Shown piece after piece: positions 16,531 through 57,439 of a stretch of DNA of 64,000 bases. The stretch lies in NCBI GenBank assembly GCA_951406725.2, contig OX597817.1, positions 131,192,001 to 131,256,000 of the forward strand, given 5' to 3'. A program made the translations under genes and the position numbers. The notes below the pieces were generated by a model. It was not told the DNA's origin and made no database searches. It was given only the letters and a program-made list of their open reading frames with translations. This DNA is from Octopus vulgaris. Lineage: Eukaryota. Numbering within the stretch: position 1 is the stretch's first letter; every line of letters begins with the position of its first letter.

Positions 16531-21847
<5,317 letters not shown>

Positions 21848-27068: not shown

Positions 27069-27110
<42 letters not shown>

Positions 27111-27434
27111 CATATATATGTATGTATGTATATATATATGTATATATGTATATATATATATATATATACAATTAAGGACAACTACTTAATAAGGAAAACT
27201 TAACAAGAAATTGTCAGGTAGATAGCGTGAAAACCTCATAAGAGAAAAAATTTCGAAAATAATTATTTCTTATTGAACATATTAATTTATATATAGAGGG
27301 CATTATACATACATGTCAGAGGGCATTATACATACATGCCACACGCTAAGAGGGACAATTAGTCATTTCTACCAAAAATATTACTAATCCCACCGAATGC
27401 AATTCTTCAAAGTAAGACATTTAAAAAATATAGA

Positions 27435-27476
27435 CCTGTATCACAGTGATTTCATACTTACGTATTCATCAGCAGG
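27435..27476 (-). ncRNA. Type I hammerhead ribozyme (copy 1)
   Basis: CCUG-CUGAUGA-AUAC(GUAA)GUAU-GAAA-UCAC(U)GUGA-UA-CAGG on the minus strand. Confidence 0.9.
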
Positions 27477-27621
27477 CCTGGATGTATCATACATAAACGA
27501 CCCTGCCTCGCTTAAGCCGATCAGCTAACTGATCAACATCAACCAAGCACATGGGTGAGTTTACATCAGTTAGCTGATCGGCTTAAGCGAGGCAGGGTCG
27601 TTTATGTATGATACATCCAGG

Positions 27622-27663
27622 CCTGCTGATGAATACGTAAGTATGAAATCACTGTGATACAGG
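27622..27663 (+). ncRNA. Type I hammerhead ribozyme (copy 2)
   Basis: CUGAUGA at 27626-27632, GAAA at 27645-27648, predicted cleavage after A27659; stems I-III are all complementary. Confidence 0.92.
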
Positions 27664-28096
27664 TCTATATTTTTTAAATGTCTTACTTTGAAGAATTGCA
27701 TTCGGTGGGATTAGTAATATTTTTGGTAGAAATGACTAATTGTCCCTCTTAGCGTGTGGCATGTATGTATAATGCCCTCTGACATGTATGTATAATGCCC
27801 TCTATATATAAATTAATATGTTCAATAAGAAATAATTATTTTCGAAATTTTTCTCTTATGAGGTTTTCACGCTATCTACCTGACAATTTCTTGTTAAGTT
27901 TTCCTTATTAAGTAGTTGTCCTTAATTGCTAAATTTTTATTCCGAAGAAACTTTTCCTTTCCCGAAATGCAATTCGTAAAAGTCTGCCATTTACCGGATG
28001 TAATATATGTAAACTCACCCATGTGCTTCGTTGATGTTGATCAGTTAGCTGATCGGCTTAAGCGAGGCAGGGTCGTTTATGTATGATACATCCAGG

Positions 28097-28138
28097 CCTG
28101 CTGATGAATACGTAAGTATGAAATCACTGTGATACAGG
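28097..28138 (+). ncRNA. Type I hammerhead ribozyme (copy 3)
   Basis: Identical to copy 2; predicted cleavage after A28134, 475 nt downstream of the copy 2 site. Confidence 0.92.
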
Positions 28139-28265
28139 TCTATATTTTTTAAATGTCTTACTTTGAAGAATTGCATTCGGTGGGATTAGTAATATTTTTG
28201 GTAGAAATGACTAATTGTCCCTCTTAGCGTGTGGCATGTATGTATAATGCCCTCTGACATGTATG

Positions 28266-28317
<52 letters not shown>

Positions 28318-28329
28318 TATATCTATATA

Positions 28330-28374
<45 letters not shown>

Positions 28375-30310: not shown

Positions 30311-30354
30311 ACACCTGATGAAGGCTGGAGGGTATATCAGCCGAAACGTTGTGT
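30311..30354 (+). ncRNA. Minimal type I hammerhead ribozyme
   Basis: ACAC-CUGAUGA-a-GGCUG(gagggtatat)CAGCC-GAAA-CG-UU-GUGU; stem III reduced to CG as in PLE minimal HHRs. Confidence 0.8.
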
Positions 30355-30435
30355 TAACAACAATCATGATGAGGACAAATATCCGTCAAATATAAATAAT
30401 GTAAATAATGTAGATGGAATGAAGTCCTAGAGAGC

Positions 30436-33400
30436 TGTAGTGACGTCATATTCCAGTGTGCGCACACGCAACGTCATTCTTCAGTGTGCGTGTGCGGTAC
30501 GTCACCTTTGTAGTGACGTCATGTTCCAGTGTGCGCACACGCAACGTCATTCTTCAGTGTGCGTGTGCGGGGTTGGAACCTTCTGGAACCTTCTGGAAAG
30601 GCATAAGGAAGATCCCTCATGCACATGCGCTAGAGACTGAAGAAAAAATTCCATAGCGTTCCTTAATAGCATCGGGGACTTGTGACACGGCGATAGAAGA
30701 GAAAGGACGTATATTTTGAAACCTGTGATCAGCCTATTCTCCTGTCTCAGACGCTTAGGATTTAACCTGTTCTACTGCTGCTGAATTGTTGTAAAGCTTA
30801 CAAACGTTTGAATTCAGCCTTGCTGTGTTGAACTAGGTGGATATCAGCATACCATCGTGTTTCATTGTTGAACCAAGAAAATAAAGAATTATATATATTT
30901 TTAAACTTGCTTTTCGTTCCTGACTGGTAGTTTCTAGAAACAAAAAGAAAGGAAATTGTGTTGCACCCAAGTTGCACCCCAAAAGTGTAAAGAAGCAACC
31001 AGTTCCCTTTACAGTAGTGACCCCGAGTTCTGGTCATAGACCATAGAACACTTAACAGAAATCTAGTTTCTACCAACAGTTATAAAAGGAGCCTCTCTTA
31101 TCTTCCGCAATAATGACGACGCTAACATACACCAGCAACACAGGACGTTTACACCACGGACGCCTTCATCTCAACGATGACTTTCTCTGCCGTCGCAATC
31201 ACCATCGTCGTCCTTCAATTTCACGTCGTCTCCATCTTCGTCGCCAGCAACACTAATATGTATTTTACTACGAACTAAGCAACCATGTGTCTCAAGTCCA
31301 CCACTGTCGCCTTCACCACCGTCGACCTCAACGATATGTACACAGCAACTCGCTGAAGTTTAGCTTACACGCTGTTCGTGTATACACACCAAGATTAACA
31401 GCACAGCACTACCTGCGAGATCTTCTGTACCAATGTAACCTGGCACAGCATTGAAGCCACAACCGCTACACGACATGTGTTCAACCGGCATCTGCACTTG
31501 TGATCCCAACATCCTGTTACAGAACGAACTGCTATTTTGTACTTAACTACTAACTGGTAAATTAACTCCATCTTGTCTGAAATACCCTGAGAGACTTTTG
31601 CTATGCGCTGTATTTTGATTTGCCCGCATACACTTTGTACTTCTGTCGCACACACGAACACACATAGTTAATACACACACAAATGCTATCTCTGTCACAT
31701 TCATACGTCACACATGCCTTACTTGCTTGTTTTTCCATGCTCAATGTGCCCTTGTAGACACAACTCATCTCTGTAAGACCCTAGGTCGGTCACGTATACA
31801 TAGAGAAAGTTGTTTGTCCCTTACAACGCACCAGCATGCCACACTTTTGTTCCTGCACGATCGAGGCATATAATAGCTCAAGCACTGGCTGGCAGCCTCA
31901 GCCTTACTGCATTAATCACTGGCATATTCAATACTGTACACTGTATTTCAGCCTAGTAAGCCCTATTGCACTCATGCACCTCTGTTCTGCACGTGTACTC
32001 CCTTGTTTCGCAACACGTCTGCGTCAGCTCAATTCTTCTCCCGACTCAAAGAACGTCGGATGTCCACATGCGCTGCGCTCATGTTTAGGCATAATTTCCC
32101 CCTGTTAGACCCCTGTTGGTCACGTAATTAACAGAGAAAATTATCTGTCTCGCGCATCACTCCAGCATGCTTACACTGTTGCCCTTGCTAACCTTACTCA
32201 TTCAGCTGAAGCACTGTCTGCCTTTGAGTTACTAGCGATCTATCTGTCAATTCCATTTCCTCTCCTGCAGCAATTGAGTTAACTGCTATTTCGCAGGATC
32301 AACCATCTTTAGCGGAGTTGGATTTAACTTCGCCTAAGTTTATCAATTGTAAGTTTGCCTACCGACCGCTCCCTTCAGCAGAAGGCTCTATTCTTTGTGA
32401 CGTATCCACCGGTTCTCCTAGACCGTTAGTACCTGAGAAACATCAACGTTCTGTTTTTGATGCTCTTCATTCATTGTCGCATCCGGGTATCTCTGCCACA
32501 GTACTTTTGGCCCAATATGCGACGATCGATTACCTCTTGGGCACGCTTTTGTTTGAAGTGCCAGAGTGCTAAAGTCCATAGACACGTTCGTGCTCCACTT
32601 GGACAGTTTTCTTCTCCTGAGGCCCGTTTTCGCCATGTCCACCTTGATTTGGTTGGACCATGGCCTGTGAGTAACGGGTTCTCATATATTTTAACTTTTA
32701 TCGATCGTTTCTCACGTTTTGCCGGAAGCTATTCCCATTCACACATGCACCTTTGACAACACCACCATTTACACATGCACCTTTATCAACACTAACATCG
32801 GCAACACCACCTTCGTCGTCGCAGCCTGCCTCGAACAAACCTTATGTTACGAGGTCAGGCAGAACTGTTCACTGGCCGAAGAAACTTTAAAAGACGATTT
32901 ATATTTAACATTCTCAATTGACTTCCCAGTGACAGTTACGATACTAATTGAACTTTGTTCATTTGAGTATTATTTTTTCTTTTCCTTTGCTGCATGCTTG
33001 TTTATATTATGGATTTTTTTGTTTTAATTTGTCATAGTGTGTGCCATTTTGGTGATTTGGTATCCACCTTATATTCTGAAGCCACTACAAGGAATTTTGT
33101 TTCGTGCTTCCGCACTCGAGGGGGGGGGGGGGCTTTGTGGTGACGTCATATTCCAGTGTGCGCACACGCAACGTCATTCTTCAGTGTGCGTGTGCGGTAC
33201 GTCACCTTTGTAGTGACGTCATGTTCCAGTGTGCGCACACGCAACGTCATTCTTCAGTGTGCGTGTGCGGAACGTCTTTCTTCAGTGTGCGTGTGCGGGG
33301 TTGGAACCTTCTGGAACCTTCTGGAAAGGCATAAGGAAGTTCCCTCATGCACATGCGCTAGAGACTGAAGAATAAATTCCATAGCGTTCCTTAATAGCAT

Positions 33401-35454: not shown

Positions 35455-36088
35455 GGAATATTATTCCAAACTTACAGGGAAAATTCAATTTAGAAATACT
35501 AAATCAAATTTCACAAAATAAAATACATATATATAAATTAGAAAAAAAACGCCTTTTATTAATTCAATAATGAAAAAGTGAAATTATACCATTTAGAAAA
35601 ATTAATTTTTTTAAATCGTATAATTTAATTTCTTCATTATTGTATTGATAAAAGGTGTTTTTTTTTTCTAATTTATATGTATATATAGTAGAAATATGTT
35701 GCTAAAAGAAAATATATACACGTGGAAATGTAAGGGGAAAATAAGAAAAATCAATGAAAATGCACATTGTAAATAAAAAAAAGAAAAGGCTTTTTATGAA
35801 AGGTAACACAGATATATACATTTAGATGGACTGACGTAGTAACATAAGTCATAACAGTCATTATTATGAGATGATTAAAAAGTCAGAAAAGCAAAGCATA
35901 CCATGGTTTCGTCATTGCTTTGAATAAACACTGGCTAATGAACGGTGTCAGGTCTAATAGTTCCTGAGTAAAAAGATTATTTGTAAGGGAGGTAAGTAGT
36001 TCTGGGTTTAATGCAGTTGTGTTAGATATAGAATTGTAATGTGAATGGCGTAGGGAGTGTATAGGGGTTAGTGGTGTTAATTGAAGGG

Positions 36089-38360
36089 CTAGTGGTGTTC
36101 TGTATTAAGTTGTGTGTTCATATTTAGTTGGGGAAGATTTTTATTGATGAAAATTGCCTCTTTATTCAACCTTTGTTGCATTCTGGTGTTCTGTGAACAT
36201 TGATAGAAGGGGAAGATTTGGAAATTAAGATTAAGATTCCTGGCACACCTTTCTATGTGTTCACTAGCCTGTAACTGTCTGTATTGTGGGTGGAGGATTT
36301 GCTCTTTGTGGATGGTGGTTCTTCGACAGTGTGATATTCCTGTTTGTCCAATATAGTGGTTACCACATCCTAAGCATGTCATGACATAGATTAGATTTTC
36401 CGAGGCGCAGGTAAAATTTGATTTGGTCTTAAATATTTCTTCTTGTTTGAAGTGAAATTCTGAACCTTCCACAGATAGGACGACCACATTTTTTCTCTTT
36501 TGGCTCTGTTGTTAGTGGATATAGTCTTGCACTAGTTAATATGTTTTTCAGTGACTTCGGTTGCTTTTTGCTTTTTATAATTTTGTATGAGCTTAACATT
36601 TCGTTCATTGTTTTGTCTGCTGTGACGATGGGAAGATTTTGGGTGATAATGTTGAAGGCTTCGTTGTTTCTAGGGTTATGTGTGGAAATGTACGGGAGTA
36701 TTTTTAAGTCTGGTGTAGTATTTCGGCTGGTTTGCCTTAACATTTGTATATCTACTTCCTTAGCTCTTTTAATGCCTTCATTTATTAATGAGATTGGGTA
36801 ATGTCTTTTAGTTAGTGTTGATCTAAGTTCCAGGAGTGATTGTTCACGAGTGTATGTATCCGTAACTATGGTACAAATTCTTTTCGCTAGATTAAAAGGT
36901 ATATCAATATTATGTGTTTGGGGTGGCAAGAGTTAAATAATAGGTATTGTTTAGAATCTGTGGGTTAATAAAAGATGTCTGTTTCTATGTGGTTGTTAAC
37001 TATTTTAATTAAGATGTCTAGAAAAGGGAGTTGTTTACTGTTGTGTTCCATAGTGAATTGTATATTGCTATGTATTTTGTTAAGCATTATTTTGAAATCA
37101 AGGAGTTTATCCATGCTGTCTTTCCAAAGTATGAAGCAATCATCAAAATATCTCTTCCAGTTCTCCTTTAAATAGAAATTAAAAGAGGCGCCATATTTTT
37201 CTAGTGATGATTGGTATAACTTAAGTTCTAGGTAACCCATTACAAGGTTTGCAATCACTGGAGCAGCTCTAGTTCCCATTGCAATTGCACAATTTTGTCG
37301 ATAGTAAGTTGTATCGATCATGAAATAATTGTTCAGCAAGATGAATTTGAGTGCTTCAATTATAAAACTGTGGTTAATGCGTCCTGGGATCTCTTCTGGG
37401 TATTTTTCTAGCCAGAATGTGATTGCTTCTATACCATAGTCGTGTGGGATATTGGTGTATAGATTCACCACATCGAAAGATACCAGCAGGGTTCCGTCCT
37501 TTACTGTCTTCGGGAGGTGGTTCAGCATGTCTAGGTCATCCCTGATAAAGCTTTTCACATATTTTAAAAAAGGTTTGAGTAATATGTCGAGGAAGTTGCT
37601 CAAACGGTGGGTTTCACAAGAAGGGCCAGCTATGATGGGTCTCAGTTTGAGGTCAGTAGGGGGAGGGACATTAATGCATAGGCTTGTAGAGACTTTGCAG
37701 GCTTCACAAATGTGTGGATTTTTATGTATTTTGGGTAATCCGTAGAATAGACTAGGACTGTATTTAAAATTGGATAAATAGTCTATTTCATGTTTAGTGA
37801 GACCCTTTCCTTGAATTTGGAGTAAGGAGGATAAGTTTTTCAGTGTTTTCTGTGGGTTGTAATGTATTAATTTCTCATAGTAAGTATTAATTTTCAACAT
37901 GGAAAGTATTAGATTTTTGTAGTACTCTTATCCATCACTACTACCGCACTTCCTTTGTCGGCTTCTTTAATGGTGAGGTTTATGTCATTTTTTAGCTCGA
38001 CAAGGTCTTTCCATTCATTTAAATTAAGGTTGGATTTCATTTGTTGTTTTGGTAGGGTATTGTAAGGAAAACAGTTTATGTGTTCACAAAAAACATCAAG
38101 TGCTTTATTTCTGCCTTTTGTAGGCCGGTATTCACTTTTGTTTTTCAATATTGAGTCATCTTCGCTGGTGTAGTTGTGAAGTGCTTCTGTGAGGCGTAAT
38201 TTTCGGCAGAAATCCATAGTATTGTCCTTAATTTCATTTGGGTTCGATCTGCGGGGGGTAGGGGTAAATTTTAAACCTCTTGCTAGGATATTGGTTTGTG
38301 TAAAACTCAAGATTTTCTTTGACAGGTTGATTATTTTCGGTTGGTTTTGTTTATTTTGTT
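36089..38360 (-). pseudogene. Penelope-like RT plus GIY-YIG ORF (Neptune/Nematis type), near full length, frameshifted
   Basis: IINLS...GLKFTPTP, KEADKGSAVVVMD, YGLPKIHK, LRPIIAGP, SFDVVNLYTNIP, AMGT, RYFDD, LPFLDI, NLIYVMTCLGCGNHYIGQTG. Confidence 0.93.
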
Positions 38361-38363
38361 CCA

Positions 38364-38430
<67 letters not shown>

Positions 38431-38454
38431 TGTATGTATGTATGTATGTGTGTG

Positions 38455-38665
38455 TATGTTTCTGTCGGTATGTTTGTCCCCCACCACCGCTTGAGCACTG
38501 TTGTTGATATCTTCCCGCCGCTGTTACCTTCGTGGTTCGGCCTAAGAAACCGATAAAATAGGTACTAGCCTTAAAAGGTACACAAGGAGTGGCTTCAATT
38601 AGTCGGATTAAAAGTGCTCTAGGTAGTGTCGCAGTACGGCCGCAATCTAGTGACTGAAAAGAAAC
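38455..38665 (+). mobile_element. Octopus-type SINE 3' half, decayed
   Basis: TGTTTGTCCCCCACCACCGCTTGA...GGTTCGGC...TGACTGAAA is homologous to the 7680-8097 SINE. Confidence 0.7.
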
Positions 38666-39385
38666 GAAAGGAAATTAGATATAACGCATAAAGGGAATTA
38701 ACTCTTTCCATATTTAATGAATGTGTTTGTAACATCTTTTACAGTGAAACCGAAAATTGAAATCAAAAGCACAAACACCGAATACATTGTAATGGCCAAG
38801 TGTCCATTACCATTTACTACAATAAAATGTTACCAAGGAAATGTAAGGCAATGAAACATTGTTTTCTTTCTCTCTATCTGTCGAATGACAGATGTTTGTC
38901 TCAAATCTCTTCTAAATGTGAAATTTTGAAATTTCGTGTAAATATTTCTCATTTAGGAAAAATATTAGAAGGGTTTCAAGTGATTATTTTTAACCAATCA
39001 GAAAACAGATTTTAGGAGTTGGGAGTTTTCTGTGGGATGGCTGCATGCGATTCCATTATACATACATAAATACTTATATACATACATACATGTGTGTGCG
39101 TGTGTGTGTGTTGGCTTTTACACGATGTGCTTCTTTCAGTTTCCATATAACAAATCTACTCGCAAAGCTTTGCTTGTCTTGTAGCATAAGACACTTGCTC
39201 AAGATGGTAAGCAGATGGACTGATCGCGGAGCTATACATACAGACAGACAGACCCCCACCCGCACACACACACCAACACACATATCTATATATTGATAAA
39301 CTACTAAAATAAATAAACACGTCGTATCAAGCTGTTTTCTTGGTATGTTGTTTTTGTTTATTCATTATATATCTTGAATTATGCA

Positions 39386-39447
39386 CACACTGAAGAGTAA
39401 AGAGTGCATATTATTGCACTGATTACGAAATCAAAGTATGATATGTG
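39386..39447 (+). ncRNA. Type I hammerhead ribozyme
   Basis: CACA-CUGAAGA-GUAA..AGUGCA..UGCACU..UUAC-GAAA-UCA(aagua)UGA-UA-UGUG; intact core, predicted cut after A39443. Confidence 0.88.
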
Positions 39448-39691
39448 GCTAAATTCTGTTTTTAAATGGCCTGCTTCGAGAATTGTTTCGGTACGATGTG
39501 TTTATTTATTTTAGTAGTTTTGACTTTAAGAGTCCCTACTAGCGTGAGGCATCTATGTGTAATAGTGCCCTCTATATAATATAGATAAATAAATTTAAAA
39601 GAAAAAATTGATGGTTTTTTTTCTCTTATGAGGTTTTTCACGCTAACTACTTGATAAATTCTTATGAAGATTTTATCCTATTTTTAAATTG

Positions 39692-39728
<37 letters not shown>

Positions 39729-56522: not shown

Positions 56523-57028
56523 CTATTTACTACACACAACACATGTTAACTCTCTATAGTTCTCGTATGGAGGACTTGGCAATGAACCAACCACAGCTTG
56601 TACGTGGTATAAGAGAGCACCATTCTTGTTTTCGTATCCTTTGGTATCAGCTTCAGCTTCTTTGTCGACACATATATATTCAGTTCTACCTGCATGCTTA
56701 TAATATTCTGACATCAAATAACCTGAATACTCCATTTTCCATTTACCCACACACTCTTTTCGACCTGGAATCATCAATACTGAAGCAGGTTTGTTAGTTT
56801 CACAGACTGCACAAGGGACATCTTGATCCTGCAAAGCGTATGGTTTAGGTGCAAACATTCCAAATGTCTTACTTTTCGCATAGGTTGCTACTTCATATTC
56901 GACACCGTATATATAGCCGGTGTATGCCTCATTAATGTTTGTGTAATTGCCCCATTGAGGGTTCATTGTTAAGCACAAATAGTTGCTTCCGCCTCCAGAG
57001 TGTGAGTAATGTGTTCCGGCAGCTACAC
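56523..57028 (-). CDS. Last coding exon of a short-chain-collagen-C4-like domain protein (probably secreted)
   Basis: GVAAGTHYSHSGGGSNYLCL...YGVEYE...QDVPCAVC...LMIPGRKEC..WKMEYSGYLMS...TEYICVD...NGALLYHVQ...LPSPPY...ELTCVVCSK*. CAG acceptor at 57031-57029, phase 1. Confidence 0.9.
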
Positions 57029-57439
57029 CTGTCAACAAATATGCGATTTCAGTGTTAATTTTTGAATTATCTAATGAATGAAATAACATCTATAAATCTA
57101 ATTGAAATATCTAATGAATCAAATAAATGAGTGAAATGGAGAACAATTGTTCCACTGTAGCGATCAAATCTAATTAACATTCATCAATTATCGTCAACAA
57201 ACAAAGGTTCTAGTGAATTAAATAAGAATTGATTAATTATAGTTTTCACTTATTTCTTCTCAGAAGACGAATCAAAAGTTGTTTAAAAAAATAGTATTTT
57301 GAGTAAAATCCATGTCTCGAGTTTTATTCCTGGTAAACTATTTGTAACGTTTAGTAATCTAGAAGTGTGTTGTGTTGTAGTGTGAAAATTCTCGAGACAT
57401 AAATAACCAATGTTGAGGTGAAGCATTATATATGCTTAC

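Follow-up and report, generated by a model that had tools for sequence, protein, structure and literature searches.

A dispersed 475-nt hammerhead repeat of Octopus vulgaris with two fixed 3' ends and a probable link to Penelope-like elements

The closest described systems to the element examined here are the animal retrozymes and the Penelope-like elements (PLEs). Metazoan non-LTR retrozymes, known from mussel, coral and axolotl, were defined by Cervera and de la Pena (2020; PMC7229834), who showed RNA circles and proposed PLEs as helpers. More recently, vertebrate retrozymes were tied to the pLTRs of PLEs in a 2026 preprint (bioRxiv 10.64898/2026.07.22.740005), which reported cleavage in one of nine predicted retrozyme dimers. 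As for the PLEs themselves, inverted arms, a 30–40-bp tail that is often present at one end only and a preference for (TA)n have been described (PMC8557442), and the PLE reverse transcriptase (RT), a predicted dimer, was shown to initiate at two internal positions, which set the limits of the tail, and to elongate both strands of the target (PMC11167929). In that work, which describes the single in vitro PLE system published, reverse transcription mainly used uncleaved RNA and did not depend on hammerhead cleavage (PMC11167929). Dimeric hammerheads were treated in PMC4209133. With regard to cephalopods, 235 hammerheads were counted in a squid genome without analysis (PMC6962438), and the consulted sections of an octopus repeat annotation (PMC13282606) do not mention ribozymes.

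Here, we analyzed a window of 64,000 nucleotides of the Octopus vulgaris genome (assembly GCA_951406725.2, contig OX597817.1, positions 131,192,001 to 131,256,000, forward strand); all coordinates below refer to this window. The element at 27169–28270 consists of a left, inverted arm on the minus strand (27169–27564; 396 nt or 0.83 unit) and a right arm on the plus strand (27565–28270; 706 nt or 1.49 tandem units of 475 nt), which are joined 5' to 5' at a central junction with a 2-nt microhomology (27565–27566). The 3' ends of both arms point outward, each into a (TA)n target flank (27073–27168 on the left and 28271–28374 on the right). The direct repeat is exact with a period of 475 nt (27565–27795 equals 28040–28270), the inverted arm at 27169–27533 matches 27565–27928 except for one 1-nt indel, and the spacer at 27534–27566 differs from its reversed counterpart at 28007–28039 by one mismatch. 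Three identical 42-nt hammerheads are present at 27435–27476 (minus strand) and at 27622–27663 and 28097–28138 (plus strand). With stem I extended, they occupy 27432–27479 (predicted cleavage after 27439, from the consensus), 27619–27666 (after 27659) and 28094–28141 (after 28134). The monomer between the two plus-strand cleavage sites (27660–28134) is 475 nt long with 34% GC, and is predicted to fold into a branched rod closed at hammerhead stem I. The longest ATG-initiated reading frame within the element has 43 amino acids, and the longest stop-free run around the circle 56 codons. A preliminary description of this DNA had named the three hammerheads, a near-perfect 365-bp inverted copy, the spacer of that copy reappearing reversed, the (TA)n flanks and a monomer with no meaningful reading frame; all of these, and every coordinate given for them, were borne out. 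It had also quoted a small GATCAG-CTAA-CTGATC hairpin; this is the antisense form of a 9-bp hairpin (28036–28057, plus strand) at the tip of the predicted rod's second arm.

The repeat has much in common with the metazoan retrozymes (PMC7229834): it is tandem, low in GC and non-coding with one type I hammerhead per unit, occurs as dimers to large multimers, has a highly paired predicted circle and shares its genome with PLEs. A type I hammerhead was found in every unit of a short repeat that lacks coding capacity and LTR organization, with the units head to tail (longest frame, 43 amino acids; 34% GC). The plant-type arrangement, in which type III hammerheads lie in two LTRs, was not found at this locus. 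On the other hand, the units, with their predicted RNA, are 470–500 nt long here, whereas the expressed retrozymes of PMC7229834 have 170–400 nt, and (TA)n targeting, an inverted second arm and two fixed ends are not mentioned in the sections of that paper that were consulted.

The hammerhead has a stem I of 7 bp (27619–27625 with 27660–27666), a stem II of 4 bp with a GUAA loop and a palindromic stem III that could be drawn either as 4 bp with a 3-nt loop or as 5 bp with a 1-nt loop. Its core had been called perfect, and the copies are indeed identical, but the cleavage triplet is AUA and the first stem II pair is A-U in the window copy (G-U in the commoner subfamily). In the hammerhead consensus this pair is usually G-C. 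The Rfam hammerhead models, a search that the preliminary description had proposed, matched the motif neither at the gathering score nor at E values up to 10. We therefore rely on covariation across a clan of related families (units of ∼470–500 nt, 65–80% alike). Among 16 aligned clan hammerheads (15 distinct), 92.9% of cells were paired and both sides had changed in 11 of 20 pairs; none of 500 shuffles reached this score, and slid controls paired 23–43%. This is strong support for the hammerhead, although not a formal probability, given the related sequences and the structure drawn by hand. Stem III was invariant across the clan, so covariation could not separate a monomer from a dimer. In the folding calculations, two hammerheads co-folded as a double hammerhead (−31.1 vs 2 × −9.7 kcal/mol) and a lone one favored an inactive fold (−12.1 vs −9.7), which agrees with an earlier guess that the ribozyme may work as a dimer. 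The window monomer is predicted to be highly self-paired (z of −8.4 linear and −6.1 circular), and its reverse strand folds well too (z of −4.7 vs −6.1 circular), as expected of a rod. Self-cleavage of the RNA to a 475-nt unit is predicted from the motif and these models. Elsewhere in the window, another motif resembling a hammerhead, whose stem III is short and palindromic (30312–30353, plus strand), adjoins a (TAA)n tract; it was unmatched by the clan model and probably comes from a different PLE-type repeat.

To place the locus in its genome (2.8 Gb in 227 contigs, TA-rich), we searched for further copies. The DNA search gave 1431 candidate places, 40 of which were scored, and these contained full units 91–100% identical. 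The exact 42-mer occurred 103 times and its reversed control never, showing that the motif is not due to chance; the core with any 12-nt stem II occurred 460 times (reversed control, 0). Altogether 97 insertions were compared: the 40 scored from the DNA search, 39 from the first 100 exact 42-mer matches and 18 from the first 100 core matches. They lie on many contigs; the smallest comprises part of a unit, and the largest spans 15.6 kb with ∼32 units. Such dispersal, with copies ranging from monomers to multimers, is typical of retrozymes. Thus, the locus represents one of hundreds of copies of a young hammerhead repeat of 475 nt that is dispersed and non-coding. Its dispersal, as well as the young, non-coding, tandem and hammerhead-bearing character given in the preliminary description, was shown by the copy searches, the reading-frame scan, the arrays and the covariation. 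Variants of the unit recur within long arrays, including the 32-unit array, which suggests that arrays were duplicated at a later stage or copied from multimers. In one seven-unit array (L049), the variants follow a period-3 pattern, as would result if the template was a trimer or if units were triplicated afterwards.

The main feature of the family, which had been missed together with the clan, is a pair of fixed 3' ends. Almost all 3' ends fell either at site A (27803–27815, TA-rich, unpaired in the clan consensus fold and ∼145–155 nt past the cleavage site) or at site B (27928–27934, ∼270 nt past the cleavage site), each overlapping the target by a short TA-type sequence; the stretch of ∼120 nt between them is referred to as the tail. 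One-armed insertions made up 23 of the 97 loci (13 ending at A and 10 at B), and the remaining 74 were two-armed. By position-based scoring, 59 of these 74 had one A end and one B end, one had two B ends, none had two A ends and 14 had an unscored end; 59 out of 60 fully scored loci is far from an even expectation (p=5e-17). Inspection of the 14 by eye gave five further A+B loci with an impure flank and nine with one end elsewhere. The arms ending at A and at B were about equal in length, and even the 15.6-kb insertion of ∼32 units had one end of each kind. Among 70 loci of clan relatives, both ends could be scored in 11, and all 11 were A+B. The window copy has its B end on the left and a slightly shortened A end on the right, where the right arm stops a few nucleotides short of the usual site A junction; loss of 16 nt between short direct repeats would account for the difference.

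Partial tandems with an inverted arm, as seen at the 74 two-armed loci, and two internal 3' ends downstream of a hammerhead are also features of PLEs, although the distance of ∼120 nt goes beyond the published 30–40 nt. Compared with EN+ PLEs that have a tail (Poseidon of Anolis, PMC11167929; Neptune and Naiad, PMC8557442), the repeat shares partial tandems, an inverted 5'-truncated arm, an AT-rich or (TA)n target, two internal RT starts past the hammerhead and a tail at one end. It differs from them in having no reading frame, a tail of ∼120 nt instead of 30–40 nt, arrays of up to 32 units and a full hammerhead with long stems where those elements have a minimal one (PMC11167929, PMC8557442).

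We also compared the two arms of each insertion. In the 52 of 74 loci with comparable arms (overlaps of at least 120 nt), the arms of one locus differed by 0.66% on average vs a median of 2.7% between loci, and two loci had arms less alike than average; the low divergence could also stem from gene conversion. The inner junction was a direct join in 50 of the 74 loci and contained extra bases in 24. Microhomology of at least 2 nt was present at 34 of the 50 direct junctions, vs 27% in 400 simulated joins (p=2e-9). Arm length varied from 0.1 to 32 units, with 5' ends scattered round the unit and only one of 148 within 3 nt of the cleavage site, while 116 of the 148 arms spanned that site. The template was therefore a circle or an uncleaved multimer and not a cleaved linear monomer. 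Inverted duplication of the target flanks was not above control in the set as a whole (3 of 74 vs 1.8%). Separately, 20–60 nt of target flank were duplicated in inverted form across the insertion at L082, L015, L068 and L282/L283, and clear single cases occurred in both the repeat and an autonomous PLE. Direct target duplications are unreadable within (TA)n.

In the clan, a domain enclosing site A (27727–27880, plus strand), with a stem (27750–27756 with 27868–27874) and a hairpin (27758–27799), was conserved in fold with double changes in 5 of 28 pairs, and may be regarded as a candidate protein-binding element. The consensus circle from 15 full clan units (65–99% alike) formed one rod with double changes in 16 of 76 pairs. 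The window holds a second clan member as well: a 69% match at 39459–39673 leads to an older family with a ∼500-nt unit (66% alike), represented by a separate insertion (39330–39700, plus strand) with a hammerhead at 39374–39459 and a B-type end in (TA)n. A pattern with a longer stem II revealed 1491 further hammerheads in the genome (control, 0); sequence similarity to the two families was seen in 34 of 40 that were sampled on contig 1. Another family of hammerhead repeats, more distant (L195, L200 and L201; tandem period of 419 in L195), also ends in (TA)n; it scores with the clan model and has no BLAST similarity to the clan.

Candidate helpers were sought in the same genome by using a GIY-YIG family and a PLE protein from a flank as queries. 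Two young PLE families have intact frames, with at least 28 of 784 amino acids among 150 matches listed and at least 16 of 781 amino acids among 148 (both counted by hand). Each encodes an RT followed by a GIY-YIG domain and a CxxC-type linker like that described for Neptune and Nematis (PMC8557442). Their reading frames are 99.5–99.8% (784 amino acids) and 96.7–99.4% (781 amino acids) alike, and both families insert in (TA)n with two ends ∼40 nt apart, compared with ∼120 nt in the repeat. Recently active EN+ PLEs with the same target are thus present. Two-armed copies of these PLEs also carry one end of each kind (11 of 11 and 1 of 1, respectively; three more candidate pairs were unscorable). 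On this shared insertion anatomy, mobilization of the repeat by the RT and endonuclease of a PLE is likely; the preliminary description had proposed a PLE RT.

The genome holds many PLE families. No homology was found between the repeat and the three that were compared (an older PLE of the window and the 784- and 781-aa families); the best matches of the latter two with the clan were AT-rich stretches of 19–38 nt. In addition, three clan motifs were absent from the published Naiad sequences in a motif search, and the clan model did not match the hammerheads of the 784- and 781-aa families. By eye, the 3' UTRs of these families (L269, L270 and L272) contain hammerhead-like folds 55–70 nt before the first end, with U for C at position 3 and A for G at position 8 of the core, and the second site lies in the loop of a stem that begins just past the first. 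As for the window, a decayed RT–GIY-YIG copy at 35671–38523 (minus strand) belongs to a (TA)n-targeting family (4126 candidates, 83–90% alike); besides the main 3' end of this family, a few copies show another one ∼41 nt earlier. A second broken PLE copy with a C-terminal GIY-YIG lies at 17736–19761 (plus strand). Similar GC-rich subrepeats of 28/73 nt with a 10-nt repeat at 30430–30600 and at 33133–33326 suggest the terminal repeats of one ∼2.9-kb element, and a 188-codon frame at 56523–57089 (minus strand) resembles a putative secreted domain of the short-chain collagen C4 type, which is common in molluscs.

On the basis of these results, two-site priming driven by a Penelope-like enzyme is very probable. 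For the complete reading, in which a non-LTR retrozyme provides a circular template to a Penelope-like enzyme that primes from both target strands, we estimate a probability of roughly 0.6. Arrays would be transcribed, for which there is one weak hint (see below), and the hammerheads, whose motif and covariation were observed, would cleave, probably as dimers according to the folding model. The monomer would then be ligated into a rod-like circle, its fold being predicted and conserved and the circle assumed from published retrozymes. A helper, presumably a PLE enzyme, would nick both strands of (TA)n, and cDNA would start from site A on one strand and from site B on the other, using the same RNA variant. 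Each cDNA would run for a variable distance, through the cleavage site and round more than one unit, as the observed arms of 0.1 to 32 units show. Presumably as the last step, the microhomology seen at the junctions would let the two cDNAs pair at their ends before fill-in, giving an inverted insertion with its tails outward.

The same priming could also act on an uncleaved linear read-through of a tandem array, with arrays growing by unequal crossing over and the hammerhead acting elsewhere in the cycle. Cleavage was dispensable in vitro for the anole PLE (PMC11167929), most arms are shorter than two units, and the recurrent variants of the 32-unit array and the period-3 pattern of L049 would fit such a template. 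Against this, the unit length, the closure of the rod at stem I and the hammerhead pairing are kept across families that are only 65–80% alike, the two arms of a locus were copied from identical stretches of one variant, and published animal retrozymes exist mainly as RNA circles (PMC7229834); we consider a linear template rather unlikely. It is much harder to see the unit as the pLTR of a coding PLE yet to be found, with all copies truncated. Such pLTRs do carry type I hammerheads and show the same tandem and inverted forms (PMC4209133, PMC8557442), and the loci examined are a sample, yet past site B the sequence returns directly to the hammerhead, in arrays of up to ∼32 units. None of the 97 family loci was the end of a coding PLE; the opposite outcome, with all homologues being the pLTR of a coding PLE, was what the preliminary description had said would overturn its view. 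Across 178 locus records (some of them duplicates of one insertion), PLE protein hits were present in the flanks of 17, and no RT–GIY-YIG frame was repeatedly co-linear with the repeat within flanks of 1.5–5 kb. A same-strand upstream PLE hit without intervening (TA)n was seen in just two records, L072, where an inverted arm lies between, and L186, a clan copy directly next to the decayed 3' UTR of a PLE with matching orientation, the junction being unique among 40 scored places. Taken together, the pLTR explanation is improbable. At L186 (2916–5190), a single case, a clan repeat stands in place of the 3' end of a PLE related to the 784-aa family, both having the same orientation. As the PLE portion has decayed, the repeat portion is 94–99% like other copies and the junction is unique, a later insertion is as likely as a template switch, and we rejected this locus as a template-switch chimera. 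Another locus, L068, resembled a PLE chimera at first and was rejected as an inverted copy of its own flank.

Another microsatellite-targeting machine, such as a LINE or a rolling-circle DNA element, might have produced a convergent likeness to PLEs. Other RT classes occur in the window and at the loci, homology to a helper was lacking in the three PLE families compared, and in L1 elements 5' inversions arise by twin priming, a process that Ostertag and Kazazian reportedly described in 2001. In twin priming, two target ends prime one RNA, giving an inverted arm and microhomology at the inner junction, as in the repeat; unlike L1, the repeat has a fixed second priming site, sequence overlap between its arms and no poly(A). 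Moreover, a fixed single 3' end is lacking and the 5' ends are scattered, whereas the two fixed internal ends, the one-of-each rule, the target and the tail-out form all match the PLEs of this genome, which makes a different machine highly improbable. Finally, a passive satellite or an assembly artefact with an incidental hammerhead is largely refuted. Palindromes and (TA)n are hard to assemble and Rfam gave no hammerhead match, but the insertions, at 97 loci scattered over many contigs, differ in their flanks and obey a strict end rule, the hammerhead shows compensatory changes, and contigs from independent runs contain the head-to-tail joint. The preliminary description had itself named an assembly artefact as a danger; the palindrome recurs at 74 of the 97 separate loci and is therefore not such an artefact.

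With regard to RNA, no RNA record was listed among those that contain the repeat sequence. Among contigs of several runs and species labels that cover the unit, two include the head-to-tail joint, which would look the same for a circle and for a genomic tandem. In one run guessed to be RNA, under another species label, 36 of 63 changed places were A>G on the hammerhead strand, compared with 4 of 26 in a large DNA-looking run. This excess, which comes from a run without matched DNA and was absent from three other guessed-RNA runs, hints at edited sense-strand RNA. No fossil A-to-I editing was detected in the genomic copies, where single-locus changes were 13 A>G and 20 T>C, and variants common to all units of a locus 11 and 7, respectively. 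It should be noted that a loose contig end resembling a PLE tail was rejected, as it had no genome match at up to one mismatch.

The retrozyme class, its proposed Penelope link and the Penelope tail have already been published. What is added here is the long tail, a clan-wide RNA structure without homology to a helper and a strict one-of-each rule; no description of the clan or of the counted pairing rule was found in the literature that could be searched. The conclusion that retrozymes use PLE machinery is the same as that of the 2026 preprint (bioRxiv 10.64898/2026.07.22.740005), where the evidence is co-occurrence and pLTR homology in Xenopus, whereas here it is insertion anatomy without pLTR homology. 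A further reading, which we offer tentatively, is that a lineage of viroid-like RNA circles may have evolved in this genome over a long period while owing no sequence to its helper. Its conserved structure would be recognized by a Penelope-like enzyme acting as a dimer, with each active site engaging a different one of the two fixed starts on a single circle, and both target nicks would be extended simultaneously by rolling-circle reverse transcription. If true, the one-A-one-B rule, which autonomous PLEs share, would be the general mechanism behind the inverted repeats and tails of Penelope elements, and the retrotransposition of retrozyme circles would be on record for the first time at the level of insertions.

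So far, the entry of retrozymes into genomes has been a proposal from co-occurrence and, lately, pLTR homology, and the origin of the inverted arms and one-sided tail of PLEs has been named as an open question in published work. The repeat family bears on both with a counted genomic rule of one arm per start site, and the 120-nt spacing makes the two starts easy to distinguish. In addition, the two-armed copies, if transcribed, would give long RNA hairpins, a point of possible relevance to animals that edit their RNA extensively. The family also offers a small structured template with natural variants, together with two intact young candidate enzymes, fit for the existing in vitro assay. Thus, the one-of-each rule, the long tail and the clan structure provide direct, testable evidence on the integration of retrozymes and Penelope elements.
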